A stretch of DNA of 64,000 nucleotides from Dehalococcoidia bacterium (GTDB lineage: Bacteria > Chloroflexota > Dehalococcoidia > SZUA-161 > SpSt-899), in the NCBI GenBank assembly GCA_034434815.1, contig DAOTYO010000053.1:201-64200 (forward strand), written 5' to 3'. Numbering within the stretch: the first letter of the stretch is position 1; each line of letters starts with the position of its first letter. A program made the position numbers and the translations under genes. Below are positions 11,677-62,820 of this stretch, one piece after another. A model generated the notes under the pieces. The model was given only the letters and a program-made list of their open reading frames with translations, searched no databases and was not told the origin of the DNA.

Positions 11677-11707
11677 GTCTTATCCCTCCCCCTTGCCTTG
11701 CCCCTCT

Positions 11708-12820: not shown

Positions 12821-12839
12821 CCTCCTTTTGAAATGAGTC

Positions 12840-43031: not shown

Positions 43032-43081
43032 TCCTCAGTTCACTCCTTGTAACCTTAGTTCCTTACTCAGCGGTGGCTGAG

Positions 43082-43858: not shown

Positions 43859-44594
43859 CTTTCCGCCTCCTTTGAACCGCCAGCGAATGCGCCAACCGCT
43901 GTTCCATTTCGAGCGCCGCGCCGAGGGGCATATCGAGCCCCCGGGTGATCGCCTCTTTGGCGTATCGGATGGCCCTCTGGTCGTTTGCCATGATGCGCCA
44001 TGCCGTGGCCTCCGCGGTGGGGAGGAGTTGGGGGCGGGGGACCACTTGATTCACGAGCCCGATCCGAAGCGCCTCGGCGGCGGTGATTCGATCGGCGGTG
44101 AGCACGATCTCCGAAACCCATCCCAGCCTTACCAACCGCGGCATCGTCTGTGAACCGCCGGCTGTGGGGATCATCCCCAGATTGGCTTCCGGGAGGCCGA
44201 ATTGGGCATCCTCCGAGGCGATGCGGATATCGCAGCACATCGCCATCTCGATGCCCGCTCCGAGCGCAAACCCATGGATTGCGGCGATCATCGGCTTCCG
44301 TACGCTGAGGAACATCCCCCATAGGTCCCGCTCCCATCGGACGGAACGGGCCACCGCCTGAGAAGGGGTGGTGCCGAACTCGGTGATATCCGCCCCCGCC
44401 GAGAAGGCCCGGTCTCCCGCCCCTTTGACGATGGCTACCAGAACATCGGGGTCGTCCTTCACGGCCGGGAGGATTTCGTAGAGCTCGTCGCGCATCTTGA
44501 TGCAAACGGCGTTGAGCGCTTTGGGCCGGTTCAGCGTGATGTATGCGATCCCATCCCGCTTCTCGTAGATGATGGTTTCGAAGCCGTTCGTCAT
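43851..44594 (-). CDS. enoyl-CoA hydratase/isomerase (crotonase)
   Basis: 247 aa; ITLNRPKALNA and oxyanion-hole GAG (FSAGADI) motifs. Confidence 0.85.
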   Translation of the reverse strand: MTNGFETIIYEKRDGIAYITLNRPKALNAVCIKMRDELYEILPAVKDDPDVLVAIVKGAGDRAFSAGADITEFGTTPSQAVARSVRWERDLWGMFLSVRKPMIAAIHGFALGAGIEMAMCCDIRIASEDAQFGLPEANLGMIPTAGGSQTMPRLVRLGWVSEIVLTADRITAAEALRIGLVNQVVPRPQLLPTAEATAWRIMANDQRAIRYAKEAITRGLDMPLGAALEMEQRLAHSLAVQRRRKDE

Positions 44595-44609
44595 CCGTCT
44601 CTCTCCCGC

Positions 44610-45365
44610 CTATTCCCCCTTGAAGATCGGCGTGCGTTTCTCGAGAAAGGCTTTGATCCCTTCGGTGCGATCCCGGGTGCTCTGGAGCAAAAACGAGAGA
44701 TCCGCCTCGAGCCGCAGCCCTTGGGCCAGGGTCATATCCAATCCCTTCAGAATGGCCTCCTTGGCGTATCTCTCGGCGATGGGGCCTTTGGAGGCCAGCT
44801 TTGCCGCAAGTGCCATGGACTCCTTCTCGAGATCATCGGCGGGGACGATGTGGTTGACCAGCCCGATCCGATAGGCCTCCCCGGCCGGGATCACGGAGGC
44901 GGTGAGGATCAGTTCGAGCGCTTTCCCCTTCCCCACGATGCGCGGCAATCGCTGGGTTCCCCCACCGGAGGGAACGTAACCTTGGGAAGTTTCGGGGAAG
45001 CCGAAGGCGGCGTTCTCCCCCGCGAGGCGAATATCGCATGCCAGCGCAAGCTCCAATCCCGAGCCGAGGGCATCCCCGTTGATGGCGGCGATCACCGGGG
45101 CTTTTATTCCGGCGATCGCCTCTGCGGCGATCGCCGGAATCTCGGGATCCGCCGATTCGATGGCGGCATCCGGCACTGAGAAGCTCTTCCCTGTGCCGGT
45201 CAGAAGCACCACCCGGATCTCCTCATCTTCATTGATTGCTTGGCAACAGAGGGCGATCTCCTCCGCCATTGCCCGATCGAGGGCGTTGCGGGCCTCGGGC
45301 CGGTTGAGGGTTATGCACCCGATGTGATCCGTCCGGCGGTAAGCGATGTTCCGATATGTGGCCAT
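44610..45365 (-). CDS. enoyl-CoA hydratase/isomerase (crotonase)
   Basis: 251 aa; ITLNRPEARNALD; catalytic Glu-containing region GLVNHIV. Confidence 0.85.
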   Translation of the reverse strand: MATYRNIAYRRTDHIGCITLNRPEARNALDRAMAEEIALCCQAINEDEEIRVVLLTGTGKSFSVPDAAIESADPEIPAIAAEAIAGIKAPVIAAINGDALGSGLELALACDIRLAGENAAFGFPETSQGYVPSGGGTQRLPRIVGKGKALELILTASVIPAGEAYRIGLVNHIVPADDLEKESMALAAKLASKGPIAERYAKEAILKGLDMTLAQGLRLEADLSFLLQSTRDRTEGIKAFLEKRTPIFKGE

Positions 45366-45911: not shown

Positions 45912-46023
45912 GGCATTGAACGACCCCATTATAGCAAACCCCCCGGACGATTGGCTATCGTCTCGATCGCCCGATCGGCGATATCCCCCCTCCTACGTCG
46001 GGCCGGTTTCCGGAAACTCCCGA

Positions 46024-46412
46024 AGTTACTGTACCATTTTGGTGGGTTGATGAGGGGACAAAAAGACCCCCGAGAATCTCTGAGTAGTTAGGAGCAATAA
46101 CGCACGAGATTCAAGGAGGTCTGTAATGACAAGCTTGGACGAACTGAGCACGGAGATCGAGAGTTGAGGGTGGAAGGATTCAAGTCCCGATGCATCACCG
46201 CCGTATTCGAGATATCCGCATTCGAAGGCGGATGTATCGGGATCGAGATGGGAAGAGGTGCTCAAGTCCCTCGCCGCGACGCCATTGCTCAAAGGAAGCC
46301 CGTAGCGGACATGACCATAGATAAGAACCGGCCGGGATCTATGGAGACCTTCCGGCCCCCTTGATCATGGGATGCTCGGAGGTATCCATCCCCCAAAAGT
46401 TGATAGTTACGG
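46024..46412. repeat. long inverted repeat, copy 1 (~390 bp), partner at 57306-57707
   Basis: Reverse complement aligns with 57306-57707 at roughly 90-95% identity by eye, with a few 1-bp indels that break both overlapping six-frame ORFs. Confidence 0.8.
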
Positions 46413-46485
46413 TTTCCCCCGCTCGAAATGGAACCGGCGCTTCCGAAAGTGGTAAACTAAGAATCATCCGGAAAGGAGGAGGGCG

Positions 46486-46863
46486 ATGGAAGAAGTCGAG
46501 AAACTGATCGAAAAATCCATGGCGGAAGTGGAAAAGGTGCTCAGCACCAAATCGGTGGTGGGGGAACCGATGACCATCGAGGGGAATACGATCATTCCCT
46601 TGGTGACCATGGGATTCGTTTTCGGGGCTATGGGCGGTTCGGGTAAGGGTGTAGGAAAGGGAAACAAGGAGCACGGGCGCGAAGGGGTGGGGGAGGGATT
46701 GGGCGGGGGGGCGGCGGGGGCGGGTGGAATCAAGCCAACCGCCGTGGTCATCATCAACAAGGACGGGGTGAAAGTGGAGCCGATCAAAGGGGGTACGGCT
46801 TCGGTGCTCGAGAAGATGGGTGAAACGGTGGGAAAGATTGTCGAGAAGCGCATGGAAAAGTAG
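46486..46863 (+). CDS. GerW/YtfJ-family-like small protein
   Basis: 125 aa; pattern TIIPLVTMGFVFGAMGGSGKG...Gly-rich...TAVVIINKDGVKVEP resembles the sporulation-protein YtfJ/GerW family layout; assignment from memory of family pattern only. Confidence 0.45.
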   Translation: MEEVEKLIEKSMAEVEKVLSTKSVVGEPMTIEGNTIIPLVTMGFVFGAMGGSGKGVGKGNKEHGREGVGEGLGGGAAGAGGIKPTAVVIINKDGVKVEPIKGGTASVLEKMGETVGKIVEKRMEK

Positions 46864-46877
46864 AATCCGCGCCATTC

Positions 46878-46921
46878 AACGGTGTGGCCGCAAATCCCCG
46901 CGGATTTGCGGCCACACCGTT
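46878..46921. promoter_or_regulatory. 44-bp perfect hairpin/palindrome (20-bp arms) between genes
   Basis: AACGGTGTGGCCGCAAATCC-ccgc-GGATTTGCGGCCACACCGTT immediately after 46863 stop and 25 bp before the transporter start; no clear U-tract. Confidence 0.5.
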
Positions 46922-46945
46922 TCCATCCCTCATGAACGCTGAACC

Positions 46946-47869
46946 ATGAGCGAACATTCACACGGTCCCCGTTCCGACACGCGAAGAGACCAGCGGCGCT
47001 TGCTGATCGCTCTGGCCATCACCGCGCTGATGACGGTGGCGGAGCTGATCGGGGGGATTCTGAGCAATAGCCTCGCCTTGCTGGGCGATGCGGGACACAT
47101 GTTCACCGATACCCTCGCCCTGAGTCTGAGCTTCTTTGCCATCGGACTTGCCCGCCGTCCGGCAGATACGAAAAGGACCTTCGGCTACCTTCGGGCGGAG
47201 ATCTTGGCGGCCCTGCTCAACGGCGCCGTCCTCGTAGGGATCGCCGGCTTCATCTTCTACGAGGCCTACCGGCGCTTCAATGATCCCCCCAAGATCGAGG
47301 GCGGACTGATGCTGGCGATAGCCGCCGTCGGGCTGGCCGCCAATCTGGCGGGTATTTTTTTCCTTCGTTCGGCCGGCCGGCAGAATCTCAATGTGAAGGG
47401 GGCCTTTCTGCATGTGGTGAGCGATGCCCTCTCCTCCATCGGGGTGATCGCCGCCGCCGGTATCATTCTGACAACGGGTTGGAACTACGCCGATCCGCTC
47501 ATCAGCATTCTGATCGGAACTCTGATCCTGCGAGGGGCGATCCAGCTTGTCTGGGAATCGGTGAATATCCTCCTCGAAGCGGCTCCCCGTCATCTCGATG
47601 CGAGCCGGATCACTGCCGAGATCGGCAAGGTGCCGGGCGTGCGGGATATCCATGATATCCATATTTGGACGCTCACCTCGGGCGTTCACGCCATGAGCGG
47701 GCACCTCTTGATCGAAGATCAGATGGTCAGTCACAGCGCCCAGATCATCGCCGAGGTCAATCAAAAGCTCGCGCAGGATTTCGGCATCGCCCATACCACC
47801 CTTCAAATCGAATGCGAGGTATGTCAGGATCATCCCGTTTGCCAGATCGAGAACAGCCGCCGCCAGTAG
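46946..47869 (+). CDS. cation diffusion facilitator family transporter (CzcD-like)
   Basis: 307 aa; six TM helices; HxxxD metal-site motifs (HMFTD; HVVSD); cytoplasmic C-terminal domain. Confidence 0.9.
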   Translation: MSEHSHGPRSDTRRDQRRLLIALAITALMTVAELIGGILSNSLALLGDAGHMFTDTLALSLSFFAIGLARRPADTKRTFGYLRAEILAALLNGAVLVGIAGFIFYEAYRRFNDPPKIEGGLMLAIAAVGLAANLAGIFFLRSAGRQNLNVKGAFLHVVSDALSSIGVIAAAGIILTTGWNYADPLISILIGTLILRGAIQLVWESVNILLEAAPRHLDASRITAEIGKVPGVRDIHDIHIWTLTSGVHAMSGHLLIEDQMVSHSAQIIAEVNQKLAQDFGIAHTTLQIECEVCQDHPVCQIENSRRQ

Positions 47870-47906
47870 CCTTCCCCGTGCGGCAATATCCTTTTCCCCC
47901 TAAAAA

Positions 47907-48731
47907 ATGCTAGACTGGATACCGTCGGAAACGTTCGGAAGAAAGGAGTCGAGTACCGTGGACGACATCATCATTTCCCGGGCCATCACCGAGAGCTACT
48001 TTCAGGATTTTCTGGATGCTCTCGAAGCCGATGCGGCCGTCGTCGGCGGGGGGCCTTCGGGATTGATAGCGGCGTATTATCTGACCAAATCGGGGGCCAA
48101 GACCGTCCTCTTCGAGCGATCGCTCCGCGTGGGCGGGGGGATGCCGGGCGGGGGGATGATGTTCAACCGGATCGTCTTTCAATCGGAAGGAAAGGCCATT
48201 CTGGATGAGCTCGGCGTGCGCACCCGCGAATATCAAAAAGGGTATTTCGTGGCCGATTCCCTCGAGACCATCTCCACCCTCTGTTCGAGAGCAATTCAGG
48301 CGGGGGCACGCATCTTCAACCTCATCAGCGTCGAGGACGTCATGATCCGCGAGAATGACCGTATCGCCGGATTGGTGCTGAACTGGAGCGCGGTTGGCAT
48401 CGCCAAACTCCACATCGACCCGCTGGCGATGCGGGCCAAAGTGGTGATCGACGCCTCCGGTCATGCCGCCGAGATCTGCCACATCGTAGAAAGGAAGATC
48501 GGGCCGCGACTGAACACGCCGTCCGGAACGGTCATCGGCGAGAAGCCCATGTGGGCGGAAATCGGCGAGCGGGCGCTTCTGGAAAACACGAGAGAGGTTT
48601 TCCCGGGGCTCATCGTAGCGGGAATGGCGGCCAATGCCGTCTATGGCTCCCATCGGATGGGAGCGATCTTCGGGGGAATGCTCCTCTCCGGCAAGAAAGC
48701 GGCGGAGCTTGCCATCGCGAGGATCCGCTAG
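47907..48731 (+). CDS. Thi4-family thiazole synthase-like protein
   Basis: 274 aa; DAAVVGGGPSGL FAD/NAD fold; Thi4-type conserved regions (GGGMPGGGMMFN; VIDASGH; FPGLIVAGMAA). Confidence 0.8.
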   Translation: MLDWIPSETFGRKESSTVDDIIISRAITESYFQDFLDALEADAAVVGGGPSGLIAAYYLTKSGAKTVLFERSLRVGGGMPGGGMMFNRIVFQSEGKAILDELGVRTREYQKGYFVADSLETISTLCSRAIQAGARIFNLISVEDVMIRENDRIAGLVLNWSAVGIAKLHIDPLAMRAKVVIDASGHAAEICHIVERKIGPRLNTPSGTVIGEKPMWAEIGERALLENTREVFPGLIVAGMAANAVYGSHRMGAIFGGMLLSGKKAAELAIARIR

Positions 48732-48742
48732 GGAAGGGCACC

Positions 48743-49900
48743 ATGAAGAGGATCTATCTCGACCATGCCGCCACCACCCCCACCCACCCCAAGGTCATCG
48801 AGGCGATGCTTCCCTTTTTCACCGAGCGGTTCGGGAACCCTTCTAGCATCCACTCCTTCGGGCAAGAGGCGCGGGTCGCCGTGGACGAAGCCCGAGAGCA
48901 CGTGGCCGCGCTGATCGGGGCGCGCGCCGATGAGATCGTCTTCACCAGCGGCGGCACGGAGGCGGATAACTTCGCCCTCAAGGGGATTCTCTACGCCAGC
49001 GAATCCAGAGGCAACCACATTATCACCAGCCGGATCGAACACCATGCCGTGATCGAGGCCTGCAAATTCCTATCTCGGCACGGCGCCGAGATCACCTATC
49101 TTCCCGTGGATCAATACGGCCTCGTCGATCCCGATGAGGTCCGGAAGGCCATCACGCCGCGAACGGTGCTCATCTCCATCATGCACGCCAACAACGAGGT
49201 GGGCACGATCGAACCGATCGCCGAGATCGGCAAGATCGCCCGGGAACACGGGATTCCCTTCCACACCGATGCGGTGCAAACGGTCGGCCACATTCCGATC
49301 GACGTGAACGAACTGAATGTGGACCTTCTGGCCGTCTCCGCCCACAAGCTCTACGGGCCGAAGGGGGTGGGGGCGCTCTACGTTCGCAAGGGAACGAAGA
49401 TCGTCCCGTTTCTGCATGGTGGTGAGCAGGAGCGCCGGAGGCGGGCCGGTACGGAAAACGTGCCGGGGATTGTGGGATTGGGGAAAGCCGCTCAGCTCGC
49501 CCGGGCGGAACTGGAAAAGGAAATGAACCGGCTGATCCCCCTTCGCAACCGGCTCATCGAGGGGCTCAGGGCCCGCATTGAATACCTCACCCTGAACGGG
49601 CATCCCACACAGCGCCTTCCCAACAACGTGAACGTGTCCATGGACTTCATCGAAGGGGAATCGGTGATCATCAATCTGGATCTGGCAGGCATTGCCGCAT
49701 CCACCGGATCGGCCTGCAGCTCCGCGGATGCCGAACCCTCTCACGTGTTACTCGCTCTGGGCATCCCGCGCCCGCGGGCGCACAGCTCCGTTCGTTTCAC
49801 CTTGGGCCGGGACACAACTCCAGAGGAAATCGAGCAGGTCATCGAGATTCTGCCCCCCATCGTATCACGTCTGAGGGCCATGTCCCCACTGCTCAAATAA
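48743..49900 (+). CDS. cysteine desulfurase (NifS/IscS class, PLP-dependent)
   Basis: Start at MKRIYLDHAATTP (frame taken from the ORF track; my base count near 48720 is off by 1); PLP lysine region SAHKLYGPKG; catalytic Cys loop ASTGSACSS. Confidence 0.9.
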   Translation: MKRIYLDHAATTPTHPKVIEAMLPFFTERFGNPSSIHSFGQEARVAVDEAREHVAALIGARADEIVFTSGGTEADNFALKGILYASESRGNHIITSRIEHHAVIEACKFLSRHGAEITYLPVDQYGLVDPDEVRKAITPRTVLISIMHANNEVGTIEPIAEIGKIAREHGIPFHTDAVQTVGHIPIDVNELNVDLLAVSAHKLYGPKGVGALYVRKGTKIVPFLHGGEQERRRRAGTENVPGIVGLGKAAQLARAELEKEMNRLIPLRNRLIEGLRARIEYLTLNGHPTQRLPNNVNVSMDFIEGESVIINLDLAGIAASTGSACSSADAEPSHVLLALGIPRPRAHSSVRFTLGRDTTPEEIEQVIEILPPIVSRLRAMSPLLK

Positions 49901-49902
49901 TC

Positions 49903-50118
49903 CCAAAAACAGCGATTGAAGAATAGAGTGCACAAGATACCACTCTCGGGGGATTGGGGGTGTCCTCCAAGAAAACCCTTTGGGCGGGTGGGTGGGATGG
50001 GAGAAGCCGGATCGTTCATGGGGTGTGGGGGAATTCCGGGACAAGGTCCGTAGTGAGGTGATCAAGGTCATTCACCCTGAGGGTGAAGGCTCCAAAGGGG
50101 AATCGTCTTTTCGGAATA
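49903..50118 (-). repeat. copy C of the ~205-bp repeat family (reverse orientation)
   Basis: Reverse complement carries the TTGGAGCCTTCACCCTCAGGGTGAA hairpin, CACCCCATGAACGATCCGGCTTCTCCCATCCCA core and TTCTTCAATCGCTGTTTTTGG end. Confidence 0.75.
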
Positions 50119-50146
50119 ACGTGGCGGATTTCTTCCGGGGGGGATC

Positions 50147-51649
50147 TCAGGAGGACGCCTTCCGCTGCTCGCGAAGCTTCTCCGTGATCTTGCGGTAATG
50201 AAGTCCGTAGACGGCCAGAGTGGCCGCTTCGGTGAACGCCCGCCGATGTTTGAGGGCAACCTTCGTCATGAGGCGCCAGTAGTAGAGGCGAGACTTCTCC
50301 ACCACTCCCAGATACCACAGGGATTGGATGAAGCCCTTGATTTCGTTGAAACGCAACATCCGCCGCTTGCGCTTGGGCGGTTTGTATTCTTGGAGGAAGG
50401 TCATGATCCTTTCATAGTAGACCTTGGGGGAATAGATCGTCTGCAGGATTCGATGGTATCCATCAACGAGCACCTGACGATCCATCTTGGGAACGAAGTT
50501 GAGCGTTCCATCGGTGTTGTTCCCCGAACTCATCTTGACCAGACGGCCCTCCGACTTGAGCCGATTGTAGAGCTTCGTCTTGGGGAGAGCGGTGAGCACT
50601 CCCACCATCGCCGTGACCACCCCTGATTTCTGGATGAAGTTGATCTGGCTCTCGAATATCGAAGGCGGGTCGCTATCGAACCCGACAATAAATCCGCCCA
50701 GAACCTGCAACCCGTGGTTCTGGATCTTCTTCACCGCCGCCGCCATATCCCGATTGCGGTTCTGGAACTTGTTGCATTCCGCCAAGCTCTCTTCAATGGG
50801 CGTTTCAAGGCCCACGAACACCTTGCTGAAGCCGGCCTCAACCATCGCGCGCATCAGCTCTTCGTCATCGCTCAAATTGAGCGAGGCCTCCGTGAGAAAA
50901 TTGAAGGGATACTTCGTCTTCTTCTGCCAGCGGGTGATCTTCGGCAAGAGCTCCTTCTTGACCTTGGTCTTGTTGCCGATGAAGTTATCGTCCACGATGA
51001 AGACGGATCCCCGGAACCCCGTCCGGTAGATGGCCTTCAGTTCCCGGATCACTTGAGTGGCCGTCTTGACCCGGGGAACACGCCCGTTCATGATGATGAT
51101 ATCGCAGAACTCGCAATCGAACGGGCATCCCCTCGAATACTGAAGAGGCATGGACACATACTGGGAGACCTTGATCAACTCCCAGAGCGGCACCGGCGTA
51201 TGGGTGATATCCGGGCGTTCATCCGAGATGTAAACCCGCTTAGCACAGCCCTTTTGAAAATCCGCAAGGAATTGCGGAAGCGTGGCTTCCGCCTCGCCCA
51301 GAACAAAGTGATCCACCCCCTCGAAATCCTCATAGCCGGTGGTGAACAGGGGCCCCCCCGCCACCACCCGAACCCCCAGCCGGTTGCAGCGGGCGATGAC
51401 CTCCTTGGCGGATTCGATCTGCGTGATCATCGCGCCCAAGAAGACGCAATCGGCCCACTTGAGATCCCGATCCCTGAGCGGAGAGACGTTCATATCGATG
51501 AGCCGCTTCTCCCACTCCTTCGGCAGCATGGCGGCAACGGTCAGCAAGCCCAGCGGAGGGAAAGCCGCCTTCTTGGAGATGAACTTCAAAACGTGCTTAA
51601 AGCTCCAGAACGTATCGGGATACTCGGGGTAGACAAAGAGGACTCGCAT
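50147..51649 (-). CDS. B12-binding domain radical SAM protein (class B)
   Basis: Start at MRVLFVYPEYPDTFW; N-terminal cobalamin-binding-like domain; radical-SAM CxxxCxxC (YSRGCPFDCEFCD); ~500 aa. Confidence 0.85.
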   Translation of the reverse strand: MRVLFVYPEYPDTFWSFKHVLKFISKKAAFPPLGLLTVAAMLPKEWEKRLIDMNVSPLRDRDLKWADCVFLGAMITQIESAKEVIARCNRLGVRVVAGGPLFTTGYEDFEGVDHFVLGEAEATLPQFLADFQKGCAKRVYISDERPDITHTPVPLWELIKVSQYVSMPLQYSRGCPFDCEFCDIIIMNGRVPRVKTATQVIRELKAIYRTGFRGSVFIVDDNFIGNKTKVKKELLPKITRWQKKTKYPFNFLTEASLNLSDDEELMRAMVEAGFSKVFVGLETPIEESLAECNKFQNRNRDMAAAVKKIQNHGLQVLGGFIVGFDSDPPSIFESQINFIQKSGVVTAMVGVLTALPKTKLYNRLKSEGRLVKMSSGNNTDGTLNFVPKMDRQVLVDGYHRILQTIYSPKVYYERIMTFLQEYKPPKRKRRMLRFNEIKGFIQSLWYLGVVEKSRLYYWRLMTKVALKHRRAFTEAATLAVYGLHYRKITEKLREQRKASS

Positions 51650-51938
51650 TTCCAACCTTTCAAACCAGCGCCGTTCGGTTACTATCATTGTACGCGCATT
51701 GCGTCCCCGAATACAAGGGTATCCACCCTCAAAAGAGAAGTCTTTTCCCCTCAATTTTCTTCCGGAAGCCGCCGGGAGCTTATCGGCCCGGCCTTCTACG
51801 TCCGCAGAGGTGGGGATCACAGGGCGGGCATCGCAAAAAGGCTTCTTCTGTGCATTCATAGCACGAGAACCGTTCATGATTGACAAGGATGCGCCGGAGG
51901 CCTAGAATATCCCCAACCCTCCCCGAAAGGAAAAGAAC

Positions 51939-53198
51939 ATGAAAGTGCTCGTTCTGTTTTGCTTTCTTCTGGCCTGCCCGGCGTTGCTCTTCGGGGCATG
52001 GGGGTGCGGGGGAAACGATGGGGAAAAGGAGGGCGGTAAAGCGGAGACCCCTCCATCCTCCGCAACCCTCCGCACGATTACCATCGGCAACCTTTCCGAT
52101 CTCACCGGCCCTTCGGCCTCAGCTCAGGATATCATCAATATGGCCCTCGCCGATCTCGTCAAATACTTCAACGATAACGGCTTGGTCCCCGGCGTCCGAT
52201 TGAAGATCGTCACCTACGATGGGCAGTTCGATCCGGCCAAGGATGTTCCCGGCTACGAGTGGTTGCGGTCCAACGGGGCCGATCTCATCTTCACGGCGGT
52301 CACCGGAACGCCCGTCACCCTCAAATCCCGAGCCGATCGAGACCATTGCCCCATCTTCGGCGTAAGCGGCGGCGTCGAGGAACTCTCCTCGCCGCCCGGA
52401 TATGTCTTCAACCTCGGGACGATCCCGCGGCATGAGGCGCTCAGTCTCCTCAAATGGATCGCGGAGAACGATTGGGACTACAAAACGAAGGGGCCCGCCA
52501 AGATCGGCGGGGCATCGTGGGACGAAGCCTACGCCCGATGGTGGTTCGATGCCATGAAGGATTACGCGGCCGCGCATCCGGACCAATTCCAGTGGGTGGG
52601 TGGGTATCTCGCCCCGTTCGGCACCTTCACTTGGGGTCCACAGGTGGAGGCGCTCAAAAACGTGGATTATGTGTTCCCCTGCACGTTCATGACTAGCTTT
52701 GTCCGGGAGTATCGGATGGCGGGAGGCAAGGCCAAACTCATCGGGGCCTCGACCCACGCCGCCTTCTTGGGGAACATCAGCGATGCCGGCCTCTGGCCTC
52801 AGATCAACGGCATGCTCCTCATAGGCTCCTCCCGATGGTGGAACGAGGAAGGCACCATCATCAACCTGACCAAGAAGCTCCTCACCGAGAACCATCCCGA
52901 AAAGGCCGCGGAGATCATGCGATCGGGCGTGGGATATATCACCATCGTCAATCAGTATCAAATGCTCGATCTCATTGCACAGACGGTCAAATCCGTCGGG
53001 GCCGAGAACTTCAATTCCGAGGCCCTTTACGAAACCGCTCAGTCCTATACCCTGACCATCGACGGGGCGCCCAGATACAGCTTCAGCCCGACCAAACGGT
53101 GGGCCACAAACCTGTACGCCACCTACGAGGCACGGGCCGCCGAAGAGACCCTCGTCCGGTTGCACAAGGAATGGTATCCGGCGGTGCTGGAGCCATGA
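51939..53198 (+). CDS. secreted/lipoprotein-type periplasmic substrate-binding protein (probable ABC transporter SBP)
   Basis: Signal peptide MKVLVLFCFLLACPALLFGAWGCGG; two-lobe binding-protein-like length (419 aa); family assignment uncertain. Confidence 0.55.
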   Translation: MKVLVLFCFLLACPALLFGAWGCGGNDGEKEGGKAETPPSSATLRTITIGNLSDLTGPSASAQDIINMALADLVKYFNDNGLVPGVRLKIVTYDGQFDPAKDVPGYEWLRSNGADLIFTAVTGTPVTLKSRADRDHCPIFGVSGGVEELSSPPGYVFNLGTIPRHEALSLLKWIAENDWDYKTKGPAKIGGASWDEAYARWWFDAMKDYAAAHPDQFQWVGGYLAPFGTFTWGPQVEALKNVDYVFPCTFMTSFVREYRMAGGKAKLIGASTHAAFLGNISDAGLWPQINGMLLIGSSRWWNEEGTIINLTKKLLTENHPEKAAEIMRSGVGYITIVNQYQMLDLIAQTVKSVGAENFNSEALYETAQSYTLTIDGAPRYSFSPTKRWATNLYATYEARAAEETLVRLHKEWYPAVLEP

Positions 53199-53228
53199 AT
53201 ATCGAATGTTGCTCGAGGAGGAAAAGCC

Positions 53229-53693
53229 ATGGCCCGATTCAGCAGAAAAGAGGTCCGTCAGGCGGTGGAACACTATCTCGAAGTGCGGAAAAAGATCGAA
53301 GCCGGACAACTGGGATGGGAGGCTCTGGCCGATCTCTTCACGGAGGACGCCACATACATCGATCCGGCATGGGGACGCTTTGTGGGCAGAGAAGCGATCG
53401 CCCGGTTTCAAAGGGACAGCATGCAGGGGCTCGAAGACTGGACCTTTCCCATCGAGTGGATCACCATCGACGGCAACCGCGTGATCATCAAGTTCTGGAA
53501 CCGGCTCCCCGGTCGGCGGCCGGATGGCTCATACTATCAGGCCCCCGGGATTCAGGTACTGATCTATGCCGGAGACGGGAAGTTCTCCTTCGATGAAGAT
53601 CTCCTGAATATGGTGCACGTGATGGAATTGATTCAGGAATCGGGATGGAAGCCCGGGCCGAACGTCAAGATGCCGGAGAAGGTCGTTCGGTAG
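53229..53693 (+). CDS. NTF2-like / SnoaL-like domain protein
   Basis: 154 aa; cone-shaped alpha+beta-fold pattern (VEHYLEVRKKIEAGQLG...TEDATYIDPAWGRFVGREAI). Confidence 0.65.
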   Translation: MARFSRKEVRQAVEHYLEVRKKIEAGQLGWEALADLFTEDATYIDPAWGRFVGREAIARFQRDSMQGLEDWTFPIEWITIDGNRVIIKFWNRLPGRRPDGSYYQAPGIQVLIYAGDGKFSFDEDLLNMVHVMELIQESGWKPGPNVKMPEKVVR

Positions 53694-53736
53694 ATCCCGG
53701 GGCAAAGCTTCCCCAGCGCAAACACCGCGCTCGACT

Positions 53737-54741
53737 TCAGGGCGGCAATAGGGGCGGGGGCAACTCTCCGATCGCCATTCGGGCCAGATCTCCGATGAAG
53801 ATCAACGGGAGATGATGCTCACTGGCCACCCCCGCAAGATTGTGAAGGCACATGGGGCATAGACACACCATCGCCTGAGCGCCGTTCTGTTTGGCATCCA
53901 CGATGTTCCGGGTCTGAAAGGGTTTCGGATCTCCGTTCCCGAGGAGAAGCATCACACCGGCACAGCACAGCGCTCCTTCCCGATCATATTCCCGATCGAC
54001 CCTCCGCACCCCTGTGAGCTCGAAAAGCTCATCAACAAAGTGCTCCTTTTCCGGGGTGTATCGGGAAGCACAGGGGCGCTGATAGGCCACGCGGAAGTTC
54101 AGCGCCCGGAGTCGATCTCTCCTCTTGTGCAGACACTCGACGAGATATTCCGATAAGTGCACGGGCCGGAAGGGCACGTCCACGCCGTACCCGGGGGCCA
54201 GCTTGGTGAGCATGGCATAACAATCATCATGGAAACACACCACCTCGTCGGCGCCGGTCATCGCCAAGCGCCCCACGAGATCCCGCGCATGTTTCCTCTG
54301 GATGCTCTCGGCCCCCCAGTGACTGAAGAGAAGCCAGCAATAATACGGCTTTCCTCCCACCCGGGGAAGATCGTAGAGGTCCCCCTCCAGAAGGCCCGCA
54401 TCCGTCTTGCCGAAAACACATGTGGTCAATATCCGGGAAGCTCTGGGGAAGCCCTTCAATTCCCCTGAGAAGGCGTATTTCGCTTCCTCGGCTCCGGCGG
54501 CTGCTTCGGTGGCGAAGACACGATACCTCTCCTGAAGCTCCGCGATCAGGTCAAAGGGATTGGCGCCTCGGGGGCAGCGCTCATTGCAAGCATAGCACGT
54601 GATACACTGGTGCAGCACCGGCGTAAGATCGCCGGCGATCATTTTCCGCATCCACTCGATGGCTTGGGGTCGGTCGGCGCGGACCCACGGGCAACGGATC
54701 AGGCATTCCCCGCAGAGATCGCATCGCTCTTTCTCGAACAC
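53737..54741 (-). CDS. Fe-S oxidoreductase with two [4Fe-4S] ferredoxin motifs and CCG domains (HdrD/GlpC-like)
   Basis: Start moved to GTG at 54741 (AGAAGG upstream) because the ORF-track start at 54813 overlaps the tRNA gene; CxxCxxCxxxCP motifs (CDLCGECLIRCP; CITCYACNERCP); C-terminal CCG-like Cys clusters. Confidence 0.7.
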   Translation of the reverse strand: MFEKERCDLCGECLIRCPWVRADRPQAIEWMRKMIAGDLTPVLHQCITCYACNERCPRGANPFDLIAELQERYRVFATEAAAGAEEAKYAFSGELKGFPRASRILTTCVFGKTDAGLLEGDLYDLPRVGGKPYYCWLLFSHWGAESIQRKHARDLVGRLAMTGADEVVCFHDDCYAMLTKLAPGYGVDVPFRPVHLSEYLVECLHKRRDRLRALNFRVAYQRPCASRYTPEKEHFVDELFELTGVRRVDREYDREGALCCAGVMLLLGNGDPKPFQTRNIVDAKQNGAQAMVCLCPMCLHNLAGVASEHHLPLIFIGDLARMAIGELPPPLLPP

Positions 54742-54785
54742 CGGGCACCTTCTATTGCCGAGGATATAATGGAAAGGAATTTTGC

Positions 54786-54862
54786 TGGTACCCCTGGTGC
54801 GATTCGAACGCACGACACGCGGTTTAGGAAACCGCTGCTCTATCCTTCTGAGCTACAGGGGC
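54786..54862 (-). tRNA. tRNA-Arg (anticodon CCU), CCA encoded
   Basis: Minus-strand sequence GCCCCTGTAGCTCAGAAGGATAGAGCAGCGGTTTCCTAAACCGCGTGTCGTGCGTTCGAATCGCACCAGGGGTACCA folds as a cloverleaf: 7-bp acceptor stem (G1-U72 wobble), D-arm AGCTCAGAAGGATAGAGC, anticodon stem GCGGT/ACCGC with loop TTCCTAA, T-arm GTGCGTTCGAATCGCAC. Confidence 0.85.
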
Positions 54863-55015
54863 TCGGTTTCAGAAAGGCCGGGGCGAACGAACACATGGAG
54901 AAGTGTACCGGACTACCCTTCCCGACCGCGCTTCCCTACCGGCGCGCATAGGCCTCGGCCCGCTTCGGTTCTATGATATGAGAACGGCCGCCCCTTTGTA
55001 AAGACGGGGCGTTTC

Positions 55016-55043
55016 GTAGGGGCGGTTCGCGAACCGCCCCTAC
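55016..55043. repeat. REP-like perfect palindrome GTAGGGGCGGTTCGCGAACCGCCCCTAC
   Basis: 28-bp perfect palindrome 70 bp downstream of the RAYT gene end; shares GTAGGGGCG/CGCCCCTAC termini with palindromes at 55381-55408 and 55832-55853. Confidence 0.7.
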
Positions 55044-55111
55044 AACCGTGTGCGCACCGAATTGGCCATCGCCTCATAGACCACCCCCAACTGTGGGGCC
55101 GGTGTTTTTCG

Positions 55112-55768
55112 TCAATCGAACCATTCCCTATCCGATGGGTCGATGCCGGTGGCAAGCACATTCTCGCGATCCAGATGCCACCGGAGAGGATTGGTCATGA
55201 TATATTCACGGATGCGGTCCAGCGAATCCTCGTTTCGGATGACGTGTTCGTAATAGTTGCGTTGCCAGACGGGTGTCCCCGGCATGCCGCGGCGTTCATT
55301 GATGCGTTTGGCGGCGGCGGATTTGAACCCGGCAATAAACGATGACAACGATCGTTTGGCGGGTCCCCGCGGTTGTTCTTGTAGGGGCGACCGGCCGGTC
55401 GCCCCTACGCCGGTCGCCCCTACGCCGGTCGCCCCTACGCCGGTCGCCCCTACGCCGGTCGCCCCTACGCCGGTCGCCCCTACACCGGTGGATTCCATAA
55501 TCCACACGATGCCATGAATATGATTGGGCATCACCACGAATTCATCGGCAAACAATTCGATTTCTCGACGGATGTCCGCCGAACGAAACCATTCCTCCCG
55601 CACGATGAAGCCGTATTCATTCAACCGCATTTCCCCATCCACCACCTCACCGAAAAGGTGTTCGCGGTCTTGCGTGCAGAGGGTCACAAAATAGGCACCC
55701 GCTTGCGTGTAATCGTATCCCCTCAGGCGGATGGTGTGGCGGTGATGTTTCTCAGGATCGTACCGCAT
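55112..55768 (-). CDS. REP-associated tyrosine transposase (RAYT, IS200/IS605 TnpA-like) carrying an in-frame (GVGAT)x6 repeat insertion
   Basis: Start at MRYDPEKHHRH; HuH motif VMPNHIHGIV and catalytic Tyr region WQRNYYEHVIRNEDSLDRIREYI; the 40-aa insert between them is encoded by the tandem 15-bp repeat; the upstream part of ORF 55112-56485 is read-through. Confidence 0.75.
   Translation of the reverse strand: MRYDPEKHHRHTIRLRGYDYTQAGAYFVTLCTQDREHLFGEVVDGEMRLNEYGFIVREEWFRSADIRREIELFADEFVVMPNHIHGIVWIMESTGVGATGVGATGVGATGVGATGVGATGVGATGRSPLQEQPRGPAKRSLSSFIAGFKSAAAKRINERRGMPGTPVWQRNYYEHVIRNEDSLDRIREYIMTNPLRWHLDRENVLATGIDPSDREWFD
55381..55484. repeat. REP-like palindrome GTAGGGGCGACCGGCCGGTCGCCCCTAC followed by 6 tandem copies of 15-bp unit CCGGTCGCCCCTACG
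   Basis: Perfect 28-bp palindrome at 55381-55408 whose right arm is reiterated 6 times to 55484 (last unit ...CTACA); lies inside the RAYT coding sequence, in frame. Confidence 0.8.
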
Positions 55769-55831
55769 CGCTACGCCGTCCTCGCCTTCCCCAACCGAAT
55801 AGGGGGCCGGTTCGCGTTCCAGGGGCGGTTC

Positions 55832-55853
55832 GCGAATTGCCCCTTCTTCCACG
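55832..55853. repeat. REP-like imperfect palindrome GGGGCGGTTCGCGAATTGCCCC
   Basis: Near-identical to the central part of the 55016 palindrome; lies ~65 bp upstream of the RAYT start, preceded by a second GGGGGCCGGTTCGCG motif. Confidence 0.55.
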
Positions 55854-55940
55854 ATTTTGACCTTCTCCGGGGTCAGGCTGTAGAGGCGATAGACCCCTTC
55901 ATCAATCTCAAAAGACGTACGCCCCGAAGCTCGATCATCC

Positions 55941-56711
55941 CTATGGAATGGGGGAAAGGAGTTCCTCGATCGTAGGGCAATCCGGGGGCCACCGGCCGGT
56001 TTCCTTGAGCCATTCCCGCTCGCGGTGAACAATTTCAGAGAGAGGCGGCAGGGTATCCTGCAGGGGAGCAACATGTTCAAATCGAGCATGGAGACTCTGA
56101 AGCACTCCCCGGTAGCATGCCAGCGGATCCAATCGGGCAAGAAGCCGCGAGAAGCCCTCTTCATCGGGTTCCCACCGGACTTTGATTTCTGCCAGAAGCG
56201 CCTCGGCTTCTGAAGCCAGTTGAACCGAAAGCATCCCAGAGGGGAAGGTAACTCCAAGAACGGGCGCCTCTGAACGGATCTCGTAGATCGTTCTATCCGG
56301 GATGAAACTCGCCCTGAGCTCCCCCCCGAAGGAAAAGAAGGCAATGCGCCGATCGGATCGCTCGCAAAGGACAATTCGCCCGGCGCAGACAAAGGCGGGG
56401 CTCTCCACTTCGCCTCTCCAGCGCAACATCCGCCACGATGCCATCTGCGCCTCATCCCGGAGGCAGAGATATAACGTCTCGGCACCCGAGCCGGAATCGA
56501 TGGGGAAAGGATGCAACGTAACGGTCAGCCCACCAAACCCGGGACTTCCCGGATGCGGTCGAGGTAACACCGCATAGCATTGGCCTTCCCCGTCAGAATT
56601 CTCAGACCACCATTGAGCCATCGGCAGTACTCCGCAATCGGCATAATGCCGGGAGAAATGGGGGCCCATCACCCGAATGATCCGGAACTGCCCTTCCCTT
56701 CCGGAATCCAT
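55941..56711 (-). CDS. hypothetical protein (256 aa)
   Basis: ATG overlaps the stop of the upstream membrane-protein gene (TAATG), which suggests translational coupling; no recognised motif; competes with the spurious N-terminal extension of the RAYT ORF. Confidence 0.45.
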   Translation of the reverse strand: MDSGREGQFRIIRVMGPHFSRHYADCGVLPMAQWWSENSDGEGQCYAVLPRPHPGSPGFGGLTVTLHPFPIDSGSGAETLYLCLRDEAQMASWRMLRWRGEVESPAFVCAGRIVLCERSDRRIAFFSFGGELRASFIPDRTIYEIRSEAPVLGVTFPSGMLSVQLASEAEALLAEIKVRWEPDEEGFSRLLARLDPLACYRGVLQSLHARFEHVAPLQDTLPPLSEIVHREREWLKETGRWPPDCPTIEELLSPIP

Positions 56712-57220
56712 TAGACGGCGGGAGAGGAGAATCTCCGGCAGCGTTCGGTAACCTTGGCATACCGGTTCATCTCGTGCTGGGCGATGGTGAGCGCTAGCGG
56801 TGGGATCAGGAGGAAGGCGAATACCGCGAAGATGGCATCATCCCAGCGATCGGAGACCATTCCGATGCTGCGCCAGTACACGGCATAGAACGCAAATACG
56901 GGGATGCTCAGAAACACCAAGAAGATCACGAGTAGAACATCCCCATAGAGAGGCAAATTGATCAAGCCGATATCATGAAACGAACTGAACACCGTCAAAC
57001 CGCAGAAATAGTAGATCGGGAGAAGGATCAACCATCCCACCAGAGCCACTCGCTTATCGGGAGGGGTGCCGAGTTTGGCCCTTCGAAGTTCATCAGCCGT
57101 CGTCATGTACCAGTATGCCCAGTAGATACCGGGGAGGATCAATGAAAGGAAGGCAACCAGGGCCGGATGACGATACTTCACTGTTTTCTCCCAAGCCGCA
57201 TTACACTTGATTTTCCCCAT
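56711..57220 (-). CDS. hypothetical integral membrane protein (4 TM)
   Basis: 169 aa; four hydrophobic helices (ALVAFLSLILPGIYWAYWY; LVGWLILLPIYYFCGLTVF; VLLVIFLVFLSIPVFAFYAVYW; IFAVFAFLLIPPLALTI). Confidence 0.55.
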   Translation of the reverse strand: MGKIKCNAAWEKTVKYRHPALVAFLSLILPGIYWAYWYMTTADELRRAKLGTPPDKRVALVGWLILLPIYYFCGLTVFSSFHDIGLINLPLYGDVLLVIFLVFLSIPVFAFYAVYWRSIGMVSDRWDDAIFAVFAFLLIPPLALTIAQHEMNRYAKVTERCRRFSSPAV

Positions 57221-57305
57221 GGCGCTGAACGCAGATAGGATGAACCTGAGGCATGACCACTTGGGCGATATTATACAACCTCAGGGTTCGAGGGCGCAAC
57301 ACCGC

Positions 57306-57707
57306 CCTTCGGGAGTGTAACTTTCAACTTTTGGGGGATGGATACCTCCGAGCATCCCATAATCAAGGGGGCCGGAAGGCCTCCATAGATCCCGGCCGGT
57401 TCTTAATCTATGGTCATGTCCGCTACGGGCTTCCTTTGAGCAATGGCGTCACGGCGAGGGACTTGAGCACCTCTTCCCATCTCGATCCCGATACATCCGC
57501 CTTCGAATGCGGATATCCTCGAATACGGCGGTGATGGATCGGGACTTGAATCCTTCCACCCTCAGCCCTCGAACTCCGTGCTCAGTTCGTCCAAGCTTGT
57601 CATTACAGACCCCCCTTGAATCTCGTGCGTTATTGCTCCTAACTACTCAGAGATTCTCGGGGGTCTTTTTGTCCCCTCATCAACCCACCAAGATGGTACA
57701 GTAACCG
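57306..57707. repeat. long inverted repeat, copy 2 (~400 bp), partner of 46024-46412
   Basis: Aligns with the reverse complement of 46024-46412; indels relative to copy 1 shift the reading frame of the overlapping ORFs (57253-57534 / 57507-57704 versus the single ORF 46026-46292). Confidence 0.8.
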
Positions 57708-57908
57708 AGCCTCAGTGACTTGATAATGGTTATTCACTCCGAGAGTAAAGGCTACAAAGCAGAATCGCTCTTTTTGGAGAGACCCGATAAATTGACGTCG
57801 GCAAAGCGATTTGCTATATTTACAGCGGTTGTGTTTTGCGGCCCCACGTCTGGACTCAGATTTGTAGCGCCAGATTCAAAACACCTATCGAGAGAAGGAG
57901 GAAAAGAA

Positions 57909-59345
57909 GTGGCAGGTATAACCTCATTCGGTGCCTACGTTCCGTATTATCGCCTCAGCCGCAAAGAAATCGCCCGTGCGTGGGATAGCTACCCGGGCGA
58001 TGGGTACCGGGCGGTGGCGAACTGGGACGAAGATACCATCACCATGGCCGTCGAGGCGGTCATTGATTGCTTACGGGGCTTCAATCGGGATATCGTCGAT
58101 GCGCTCCTCTTCGTGACCACTACCCCCGCGTTCCATGAGAAATCCAGCGCCGCGGTGATCGCCAAGGCTACCGACCTCAAGAACGATCTGTTCGTGCTCG
58201 ATTGCGGCGGCAGCCTGCGGGCCGGAACGGCTGCGATGAAGCTTGCTCTGGATACCGTGAAAGCAGGGGCCCAGAAGAATGTGGTTGTTGCAGCGGCCGA
58301 TTGCCGGCTGGCCCCTCCGAACTCCGGCGCGGAGAGCGATTTCGGCGACGGCGCCGCAGCGGTCATGATCGGCGATCAGAATGTGGCGGTCGAGATCGAG
58401 GGGGTCTATTCGTATACCGAGGAGTTCACGGATCGCTGGCGCAGAGCCAATGATCAGTTCGTCAAGACATGGGAGGAGCGGTTCGTCAACACCCAGGGTT
58501 ATAACCGCCTCCTCACGATCACCGTCACCAACGCGCTGAAGCGCTTCAATCTCAAACCCCAAGATATCACCAAGATCATCTACCCCGCCCACTCGAAGAC
58601 CGCCCACACCCGCTGCACCATGCTCGGGGCTTGCGGCTTTACCAAGGCTCAGGTGCAGGACCCGCTCTTCGATAAGATCGGGAACACCGGCACGGCCCAC
58701 CCCCTGCAAATGCTCGTGGCGGCCCTTGAAGATGCCAAGCCGGGTGACCGGATTCTCCTCGTGAGCTATTCCGACGGCGGCGATGTGTTCAACCTCAAGG
58801 TGACCGAGAATATCACCAAGCTTCAGGGCAAGCGAAGGGGCATCAAGAAGCATGTGGCGACGATGAAGGATCTTCCCAACTACGGGCGCTATCTCCTCTT
58901 CCGGGGTCTGGTCTCCCGCGAATACGAAGCGCCCGCCCCTGTTCCGTACGCTTCTCTCCCCCGCGAGTGGCGCGAGCGCAACAGCATCATGTCGCTGCAC
59001 GGGAGCAAGTGCCGCAAGTGCGGTGAAGTTCAGTTCCCCGTCGAACGCGTTTGCCCCAAGTGCCTTTCCAAGGACGATTACGAGGAAGTCAGTCTGGCCC
59101 AGAAGCCGGCCAAGATCTACACTTACAACAAGGATTTTGCCACTCCCACCTCCGATCCGCCCAACAGCATGTGTCAGGTCGATTTCGAAGGCGGCGGACG
59201 GATCCAGTGCATCATGGCCGACCGGGATCCCAACGAACTGGAAGTCGGCATGCCGGTCGAGATGGTCTTCAGACGATTCCACGAAGAGAAGAATATCATC
59301 CACTACTACTGGAAAGCCCGACCGCCGCGCGAGCCCAAGAAGTAA
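57909..59345 (+). CDS. HMG-CoA synthase-like thiolase-fold domain fused to DUF35 (zinc ribbon + OB fold), paralog of 36363-37778
   Basis: GTG start (V/MAGITSFGAYVPYYRL) with AGGAGG 8 nt upstream; C-terminal CRKCGEVQFPVERVCPKCLS zinc ribbon; same architecture as 36363-37778. Confidence 0.75.
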   Translation: MAGITSFGAYVPYYRLSRKEIARAWDSYPGDGYRAVANWDEDTITMAVEAVIDCLRGFNRDIVDALLFVTTTPAFHEKSSAAVIAKATDLKNDLFVLDCGGSLRAGTAAMKLALDTVKAGAQKNVVVAAADCRLAPPNSGAESDFGDGAAAVMIGDQNVAVEIEGVYSYTEEFTDRWRRANDQFVKTWEERFVNTQGYNRLLTITVTNALKRFNLKPQDITKIIYPAHSKTAHTRCTMLGACGFTKAQVQDPLFDKIGNTGTAHPLQMLVAALEDAKPGDRILLVSYSDGGDVFNLKVTENITKLQGKRRGIKKHVATMKDLPNYGRYLLFRGLVSREYEAPAPVPYASLPREWRERNSIMSLHGSKCRKCGEVQFPVERVCPKCLSKDDYEEVSLAQKPAKIYTYNKDFATPTSDPPNSMCQVDFEGGGRIQCIMADRDPNELEVGMPVEMVFRRFHEEKNIIHYYWKARPPREPKK

Positions 59346-59378
59346 GCGGGCTAGGGGAATCTAAGAGGAGGAAAAGCA

Positions 59379-60581: not shown

Positions 60582-60624
60582 AACGGCCAGGGCGGCAAAG
60601 TCAGGGCCGGAAAGGAAAAGCAGC

Positions 60625-61398: not shown

Positions 61399-61614
61399 AG
61401 AATCGGACTCATGGGCTCAAGCGGAGGCACAAAGGGGCATCGTGCCTCCGCTTTTCATATCGGGAATTCGAACGGCAAGATTGACAGGGGGATATTGGGG
61501 TTGGCTCCAGCGGAATGGGTGCGGATTCGGCAGGGGCTGGGGAACCGAATATCCCTCTTTCTGTTTGGAGCCCCCAAGGCTCTTCGGGCGCAAGATCAAT
61601 AGAAGGATAAAGCC

Positions 61615-62808: not shown

Positions 62809-62820
62809 AGGGACGCGATT

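Follow-up and report, generated by a model that had tools for sequence, protein, structure and literature searches.

A 10.9-kb segment within the 64-kb stretch of DNA analyzed here (the window) is inverted relative to its close relatives, and each breakpoint carries one copy of a 386-bp repeat, the two copies lying in opposite orientation. The repeat is probably a non-autonomous element of the MITE type, whose replicative transposition in trans would have produced the inversion in a single step. On this reading the rearrangement is transposon-driven and of an ordinary kind, and the repeat is neither a new RNA gene nor part of a switch.

The repeat search returned four collinear inverted blocks, 95–99% complementary, which span 46025–46410 and 57317–57705. 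Copy A (46025–46410, plus strand, 386 bp) and copy B (57317–57705, minus strand, 389 bp) share 96.66% identity across 389 columns by blastn, differing by 10 substitutions and three 1-nt indels that shift the reading frame, and in the alignment their similarity stops abruptly at both ends, giving the element sharp borders. A first-pass annotation had proposed an inverted repeat pair around a 10.9-kb segment, which repeat search, blastn and alignment bear out with a segment of 10,906 bp. Its repeat coordinates (46024–46412 and 57306–57707) were slightly too wide, its identity estimate of 90–95% was too low, and its view that 1-bp indels separate two non-coding copies agrees with the three indels and with the lack of any protein or Pfam match. 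The genes it listed between the repeats are all present, and only a SnoaL-like gene at 53229–53693 had been overlooked.

A 23-nt core motif of the element occurs exactly twice in the window, where none would be expected by chance. Neither nhmmer nor blastn detected a third copy in the 64 kb, and none turned up in the roughly 84 kb of this genome that could be searched, both detectable copies being those at the breakpoints. Logan contigs, which are built with k = 31 (PMC12424806), end exactly 30 nt past the first or last difference between A and B. This fits a repeat of just two members and makes a single local copying event more likely than a pair of independent insertions. The two copies also account for the breaks at both sites in short-read assemblies of this organism. 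The element contains neither an internal duplication nor a long internal palindrome.

At the corresponding junctions, the element is missing from four contigs of closely related metagenomic bacteria, whose flanks align across the empty sites. In L015 and L016, QueH (plus) and the orthologue of a 169-aa gene (minus) are direct, divergent neighbors about 200 nt apart, with 82% and 87% identity, respectively, to the window in the case of L015. L017 and L018 show ChsH2 (minus) divergent from YtfJ (plus) with 233 nt in between, YtfJ being 93% and 91% identical to that of the window. A more distant genome, L020, has YtfJ and QueH co-oriented, as in these relatives and unlike the window. As the relatives join ChsH2 to YtfJ and the 169-aa gene to QueH, the window represents the same order with 46411–57316 inverted and one element copy added at each breakpoint. 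The ancestral arrangement would thus have read thiolase-ChsH2(−) / YtfJ(+)-CDF-Thi4-…-256aa(−)-169aa(−) / QueH(+)-ECH-ECH, an order still found in close relatives. The element does not occur in 93 kb of the relatives' DNA, and no single-copy relative turned up, the nearest ones carrying zero.

The former spacers can be followed on both sides of each breakpoint. Both halves of the QueH/169-aa-gene spacer align to L015 and L016, namely the QueH-side half at 45930–46024, which retains a queH promoter-like site (45957–45928, minus strand), and the half of the 169-aa gene at 57221–57307, which retains a conserved block with TATAAT. The ChsH2/YtfJ spacer is likewise divided into a YtfJ-side half at 46411–46485, whose alignment to L017 and L018 starts with its very first bases, and a ChsH2-side half at 57706–57908, which retains a promoter-like site at 57792–57820. 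Since both breakpoints lie between divergent promoters, each gene keeps its own, and the rearrangement is probably near neutral. The segment itself, running from ytfJ to the 169-aa gene (46411–57316), is native to this chromosome and not imported, because the relatives hold its genes beside the same outside neighbors without any repeat.

The ends of the element carry features of DNA transposons. Its termini are GTTACT and GTAACT (a GTWACT start), and they belong to 27-bp imperfect terminal inverted repeats (TIRs). In copy A, the left (5′) TIR GTTACTGTACCATTTTGGTGGGTTGAT at 46025–46051 (plus strand) and the right (3′) TIR GTAACTATCAACTTTTGGGGGATGGAT at 46384–46410 (read on the minus strand) agree at 18 of 27 positions when anchored at the termini. 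This score (67%) was equalled by 2 of 20,000 shuffles, and both termini of copy A fit the degenerate TIR pattern used for database scans. The left TIR of copy B (57679–57705, minus strand) matches the reverse complement of its own 3′ end, with the right TIR at 57317–57343 (plus strand), at 17 of 27 positions.

The 9-bp sequence ACTCCCGAA abuts the 5′ end of copy A, toward QueH (46016–46024, plus strand), and recurs with an exact 9/9 match immediately beyond the 3′ end of copy B, toward the 169-aa gene (57308–57316, minus strand). In any other pairing of the flanks the match never exceeds 1 bp, and an empty site matching the ACTCCCGAA flank is seen in the alignment with L015 and L016. We read the ACTCCCGAA pair as a target-site duplication that was split by the inversion. 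The second pair of flanks (…TGAGGCTCG 5′ of B and GGTTTCCCC… 3′ of A) shows no duplication, nor does the ChsH2/YtfJ junction in any register checked, and this spacer is too variable among the relatives to define an empty site. The first-pass annotation had considered that the repeats can drive an inversion and had named relatives, base composition and target-site duplications as places to look. The segment is indeed inverted relative to the four contigs, its GC content and skew match those of its flanks, and the search for a duplication proved decisive, as one exists and is divided between the two copies.

We also looked for an enzyme that could act on these ends and for the element elsewhere. 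Among the ORFs scanned in the window no transposase with matching ends was found, the RAYT-like gene being the only transposase detected there; several ORFs lay outside the scan or gave no Pfam match. An IS66-type transposase was likewise not found near the element or in the window. HUH transposition leaves no target duplication. The 9-bp duplication therefore rules out the RAYT (Y1/HUH) as the mobilizing enzyme, and the RAYT-associated palindrome GTAGGGGCGACC bears no relation to the termini of the element. An IS608-like insertion 3′ of TTAC was considered, because GTTAC both precedes each copy and closes it; it is likewise rejected on account of the duplication, and the left and right subterminal hairpins are dissimilar by eye. 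Blastn with the element as query matched nothing among PLSDB plasmids or INPHARED phages. In scans that require an exact pattern match, neither the degenerate TIR pattern nor a pattern of the two T-loop-like motifs had any match in GTDB genomes or IMG/VR, and the internal 23-mer, again searched as an exact match, had none in IMG/VR. A relaxed form of the T-loop-like pattern matched five sequences in JGI metagenomes, all of them unrelated REP-like repeats without nhmmer similarity to the element.

The coding and folding properties of the element bear on whether it is instead a gene for an RNA. Its longest ORF, 112 codons on the antisense strand, exists in copy A only and has no match among 5.8 billion proteins, a search that would also reveal further copies through spurious gene calls; Pfam gave no match in any of the six frames. 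That the repeats are two copies of an unrecognized RNA gene had been raised in the first-pass annotation. Such a 386-nt functional structured RNA, or an RNA-guided or RNA-based mobile element in two copies, whose complementary ends would pair as a closing helix instead of binding a transposase, appears very unlikely to us. It would account for the purine-rich sense strand (G 115, A 104, C 88, T 79), for two T-loop-like UCAAGUCCC motifs and for the fold of copy A, which is more stable than its shuffles (z = −2.8), but the antisense strand of copy A folds equally well (z = −2.7) and copy B reaches z = −1.3 only. The RNAalifold consensus, in which all four substitutions in pairs keep pairing through G–U wobble, with no compensatory pair, is fitted to the A/B differences; the copies folded singly are not, and there most of the substitutions at paired positions disrupt the pairing, whichever strand is folded. 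At gathering level, Rfam 15 matches only the tRNA-Arg in the window, and a scan of copy A up to E = 10 gave one chance-level snoRNA match and otherwise no family of known RNA. The element has no promoter-like or terminator-like site of its own and is moreover absent from all relatives examined and without homologue in any collection scanned. Its TIRs and 9-bp duplication are features of DNA transposons and speak against an RNA gene. A previously undescribed mobile RNA-based unit, purine-rich and structured with two T-loop-like modules, copied with a staggered-cut duplication like a SINE or a guide-RNA cassette, is if anything still more improbable; its transcript would in that case act in its own right, for example as guide or scaffold for a nuclease or transposase encoded elsewhere. 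Least probable of all, and only marginally credible, is that the repeats bound a composite transposon or genomic island as its arms, with the 10.9-kb gene set as imported cargo, or that they form a programmed invertible switch. Inverted copies do bracket a set of genes that includes a tRNA gene and the RAYT-like gene, but the native position and flank-like composition of these genes in turn contradict the composite or foldback terminal repeats that had been suggested. The ORFs scanned in the vicinity of the repeats yielded no recombinase gene, and junction-spanning contigs from at least three samples all show one orientation, the opposite one occurring in no assembly and ongoing flipping being seen in none that spans a junction. 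As the promoter regions of the four breakpoint-adjacent genes all stay with those genes, the inversion switches nothing.

We consider the transposition of a MITE-type element the probable cause of the inversion and envisage its course as follows. The element has no transposase gene of its own and would presumably depend on a DDE transposase that acts in trans and whose gene lies elsewhere. Starting from a single copy in the ChsH2/YtfJ spacer, which we take as the putative donor junction, it would have transposed replicatively, in the ‘trans’ (inversion) geometry, into the ACTCCCGAA site of the 169-aa-gene/QueH spacer on the same chromosome. This one event may have created the inverted second copy and inverted the 10.9 kb between donor and target, leaving the 9-bp target once beside each copy, 5′ of A and 3′ of B. 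A first insertion into the ChsH2/YtfJ spacer should likewise leave a duplication, of which the second flank pair bears no trace, and the entire 3.3% divergence between A and B would have to postdate the event. Possible, though doubtful, is a longer route in which the same element inserted twice independently and in opposite orientation, once per spacer, after which RecA-dependent recombination inverted the segment and swapped the flanks. It would yield the identical split 9-bp duplication and the same inverted order relative to the relatives, and the difference between A and B would be easier to understand if the sources had already diverged. Mosaic copies in some samples (a copy A with one B-type base in L002, a copy B with one A-type state in L005, a copy that is A-like and then B-like in L008) suggest exchange between A and B, but they could also be artefacts of collapsed-repeat assembly. 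This route needs three events instead of two, as well as two opposite landings 10.9 kb apart by an element with two detectable copies, and under it the 5′ flank of B should equal the 3′ flank of A as a second split duplication, yet these flanks show none. We therefore modestly prefer the one-step route over two insertions followed by recombination.

The window offers a natural example of how a small non-autonomous element remodels the chromosome of an uncultured Chloroflexota lineage, a group with poorly catalogued mobile elements, and metagenomes alone sufficed to recover both breakpoints, the split target duplication and the empty sites. The lineage is Dehalococcoidia-like, as judged by named homologues from Dehalococcoidia and Chloroflexota MAGs. 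For annotators it follows that the repeat should not be called an RNA gene, nor the segment an island. The element belongs to an already known kind and raises no new biological question.

It resembles MITEs, which measure tens to a few hundred bp, in its 386-bp length, in having no transposase or recognizable ORF, in its 27-bp imperfect TIRs and 9-bp direct target duplication, and in residing in intergenic DNA with presence and absence varying between related genomes. It differs from them in that MITEs usually form a dispersed, multi-copy family, whereas here only two copies are detectable in some 84 kb of sequence from this organism; furthermore, its TIRs match at 67% only, the original duplication of one copy is missing, and no cognate autonomous insertion sequence was identified. 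Members of the ISBst12 group of the IS66 family typically have GTAA-type termini and an 8–9 bp duplication. The termini here, GTTACTGT and GTAACTAT, share GTNACT and imperfect TIRs with those of one such element, ISDge4 (GTGACTAC and GTAACTGC), but the resemblance covers only about seven terminal bases, the interior of our element has no protein similarity, and the duplication comprises 9 bp compared with 8 bp in ISDge4. Being confined to terminal bases, this likeness to IS66/ISBst12 may serve as a lead and does not amount to a classification. ISDge4 of Deinococcus geothermalis is reported to show, together with its 8-bp direct repeat, copy-and-paste behavior (PMC12898284). A close parallel to the rearrangement as a whole is the intramolecular replicative transposition in trans of IS26 and Tn4401, which leaves two inverted copies, an inverted segment and, next to either copy, a single sequence of target-duplication length, the two being mutually inverted (He et al. 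2015, PMC4471558). Our element is non-autonomous and unrelated in sequence to these, its replicative chemistry is putative, and its duplication is 9 bp long as opposed to 8 bp for IS26 and 5 bp for Tn4401. The likeness lies in the architecture: inverted copies bracket an inverted segment, the target-length sequence stands outside one copy and inside the other, and the ancestral state can be reconstructed from relatives.

The window shows the gene order of its close relatives with the segment 46411-57316 (10,906 bp, ytfJ to a gene encoding a 169-aa protein) inverted and with one copy of a 386-bp repeated element at each breakpoint, copy A at 46025-46410 (+ strand, 386 bp) and copy B at 57317-57705 (- strand, 389 bp). 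The first-pass annotation had described this inverted pair and considered an inversion between its members; the inversion is borne out by the relatives' gene order and the description of the pair holds, whereas its coordinates were a few bases too wide, its identity estimate of 90-95 % was too low compared to the 96.66 % over 389 columns obtained by blastn, and its otherwise correct list of enclosed genes omitted one SnoaL-like gene. A repeat search returned four collinear inverted blocks of 95-99 % complementarity that together cover 46025-46410 and 57317-57705. When the + strand of A is aligned to the reverse complement of B, we find 10 substitutions and three single-base indels, with the similarity stopping abruptly on either side. 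A 23-nt core motif is found at exactly two places in the window, where 0 would be expected, and neither nhmmer nor sensitive blastn detected a third copy in the 64 kb, whether full-length or partial. About 84 kb of the source genome likewise contained no third copy, leaving two detectable copies, both at breakpoints. Logan contigs, in which each 31-mer is present once by construction (PMC12424806), end in three samples exactly 30 nt beyond the first or last A/B difference, at element position 44 in contigs L003, L004 and L026 and at position 353 in L009. These stop points match the prediction for a repeat with exactly two members.

Exact protein matches assign the window to an uncultured bacterium, whose closest named homologues belong to Dehalococcoidia and Chloroflexota MAGs. 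The locus was assembled from several samples, and every junction-spanning contig (JGI 3300009503, ENA ERZ27247235, ENA ERZ27247228 and JGI 3300027863) displays the window arrangement. In L015 and L016, two contigs of close relatives encoding a QueH 82 % and 79 % identical to that of the window, queH and the orthologue of the 169-aa gene (87 % identical), itself accompanied by the 256-aa gene, are adjacent and diverge across a spacer of about 200 nt that lacks the element. In L017 and L018 (YtfJ 93 % and 91 % identical; L018 and L015 come from one sample), ytfJ and a ChsH2-like gene are adjacent and diverge across a 233-nt spacer, from which the element is absent as well, and no trace of it was found in 93 kb of the relatives' DNA. 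The order ChsH2(-) / YtfJ(+) ... 169aa(-) / QueH(+) of the relatives thereby contrasts with QueH(-) / A / YtfJ(+) ... 169aa(-) / B / ChsH2(+) in the window, where the halves of both ancestral spacers are still recognisable beside the element copies. As a more distant Dehalococcoidia genome (L020) agrees with the relatives in having ytfJ and queH co-oriented, the gene order of the window is the derived state. A second structural difference lies inside the inverted segment, since the closest relative L017 carries a 743-aa molybdopterin oxidoreductase gene (10629-12860) between the periplasmic-binding-protein and SnoaL-like genes, while nothing is present at the matching site of the window (53198-53229).

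Directly 5' of A we found the 9 nt ACTCCCGAA (46016-46024), and the 9 nt directly 3' of B (57308-57316, minus strand) are identical to them; every other flank pairing matches at 0-1 base. Together these flanks make up the ancestral QueH/169-aa-gene spacer, and rejoining them with a single 9-mer yields a sequence similar in length to the relatives' spacer and aligned with it at both ends. The shared 9-mer is the remnant expected when the QueH/169-aa site is cut with a 9-bp stagger and filled in, and the inversion would have separated the two duplication halves, either later or simultaneously. The ancestral ChsH2/YtfJ spacer is divided between the 5' flank of B and the 3' flank of A; these two share no duplication, and that spacer is too variable among the relatives to define an empty site. 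Searching for target-site duplications, as the first-pass annotation had proposed, thus gave a match split between A and B and none at the other flank pair.

Both copies start with GTTAC and end with GTTAC. Comparing the 27 bases at the 5' end with the reverse complement of the 27 at the 3' end gives 18 matching positions in A and 17 in B, and the anchored terminal match of A was equalled by only 2 of 20,000 shuffled sequences. No internal duplication or long internal palindrome was detected in it. The element is non-coding, as the three indels shift every reading frame between the copies, gene callers left it free of genes throughout the metagenome assemblies, its single long ORF (112 codons, antisense, in A only) had no match among 5.8 billion proteins, and Pfam matched none of its frames. 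An RNA gene, likewise raised in the first-pass annotation, would fit a purine-rich sense strand with two UCAAGUCCC motifs and the folding of copy A (z=-2.8). Against this, the antisense strand folds just as well, copy B reaches only z=-1.3, and the apparently wobble-preserving substitutions of the RNAalifold consensus vanish when each copy is folded alone. Compensatory changes are absent, no homologue or promoter was found, and no Rfam family matched, whether at the gathering cut-off or with E relaxed to 10. Nothing positive supports this assignment, which is very unlikely.

A composite transposon, also suggested at first pass, or an imported island is rejected because the relatives have the enclosed genes beside the same outside neighbours, showing them to be native; their composition furthermore matches that of the flanks. 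Programmed inversion is at odds with the single orientation in all assemblies and the lack of a promoter consequence, and the scanned ORFs close to the repeats included no recombinase gene. The breakpoints fall between divergent promoters: the promoter-like site of queH (45957-45928, minus strand) stays with queH, that of the ChsH2-like gene (57792-57820) with its gene, and the conserved upstream blocks of ytfJ and the 169-aa gene remain with theirs. The genes have therefore gained new neighbours with promoter-gene pairings unchanged, which argues against a regulatory switch, and the inversion was likely nearly neutral.

The RAYT-like (Y1/HUH) gene inside the segment (55112-55852, minus strand) was dismissed as mobiliser of the element, since transposition by HUH enzymes produces no duplication and the element ends show no relation to the RAYT-associated palindrome. 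This gene harbours an in-frame tandem expansion (array 55379-55498) with 6 copies of the 15-nt unit GCCGGTCGCCCCTAC, encoding (GVGAT)x6 immediately behind the HUH motif NHIHGIVW. This unit makes up one half of a REP-like palindrome, GTAGGGGCGACCGGCCGGTCGCCCCTAC, that occurs nowhere else in the 64 kb, and Pfam weakly matches the C-terminal part of Y1_Tnp only. Both outer flanks of the inversion (41460-45365 and 57909-63951) contain fatty-acid/acyl-CoA metabolism genes, encoding an AMP-binding ligase, enoyl-CoA hydratases, the ChsH2-like thiolase-associated protein, a thiolase and acyl-CoA dehydrogenases, and about 8 kb past queH there is a second ChsH2-like/thiolase pair, paralogous to the first (contig L001, 18152-20561). 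Just past the right end of the window, at about 64,050-64,090 in its coordinates (L023, 11131-11243; L025, 6331-6377), contigs of two independent assemblies (JGI, 57 kb; ENA, 93 kb) both break off no more than about 100-140 nt past the second acyl-CoA dehydrogenase gene. The gene that follows encodes a PolyA_pol-family nucleotidyltransferase, annotated with 393 aa in L023 and 415 aa in L025, and the distance of its start from the dehydrogenase gene differs between the two. Strain heterogeneity or a further repeat is suggested, the latter not being the 386-bp element.

Being small, non-coding, bordered by terminal inverted repeats and a target duplication, and present in this lineage but not in the relatives, the element is, judged by the features reviewed in PMC10969869, probably a MITE-type, non-autonomous DNA transposon. 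Two inverted copies enclose an inverted segment, and the target-length sequence stands once beside each copy, mutually inverted, a pattern published for intramolecular replicative transposition of IS26 and Tn4401 (PMC4471558). Such a geometry would arise if a resident copy attacked a nearby site on the same molecule, a single event of replicative transposition in trans duplicating the element and inverting the intervening DNA. This end state can also result when two simple insertions take place and the copies then undergo homologous recombination with each other. The 3.3 % divergence between A and B, which must all postdate a one-step event, counts for the two-insertion route, as do single-site A-type/B-type mosaics in some samples that hint at recombination or gene conversion. 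It nevertheless requires more events, and a second duplication, absent here, is predicted by both routes; a deletion next to the element or an atypical first arrival might account for its absence. We only modestly favour the one-step replicative route, based on its economy, on the confinement of the detectable copies to the breakpoints and on the Logan contig stops. As to the mosaics, the A copy of L002 has a B-type base at one diagnostic site, the B copy of L005 lacks one B-type insertion and carries two private changes, and the B copy of L008 resembles A at two sites before becoming B-like, which may reflect gene conversion, strain variation or assembly chimerism.

The feature comprises a new non-autonomous transposable element, apparently with two copies, and an inversion that the element produced or enabled, an event of a well-known kind in a poorly studied lineage. 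No matching transposase was present among the window ORFs scanned, and pattern scans with a degenerate terminal-repeat motif gave 0 matches in GTDB genomes and IMG/VR. Ends of IS66-family elements typically begin with GTAA and are accompanied by duplications of 8-9 bp. The termini of our element, GTTACTGT and GTAACTAT, resemble the termini GTGACTAC and GTAACTGC of ISDge4, a member of the ISBst12 group of the IS66 family for which a direct repeat of 8 bp and copy-and-paste behaviour are reported (PMC12898284). This likeness of the terminal sequences offers a possible IS66/ISBst12 affinity as a lead only.
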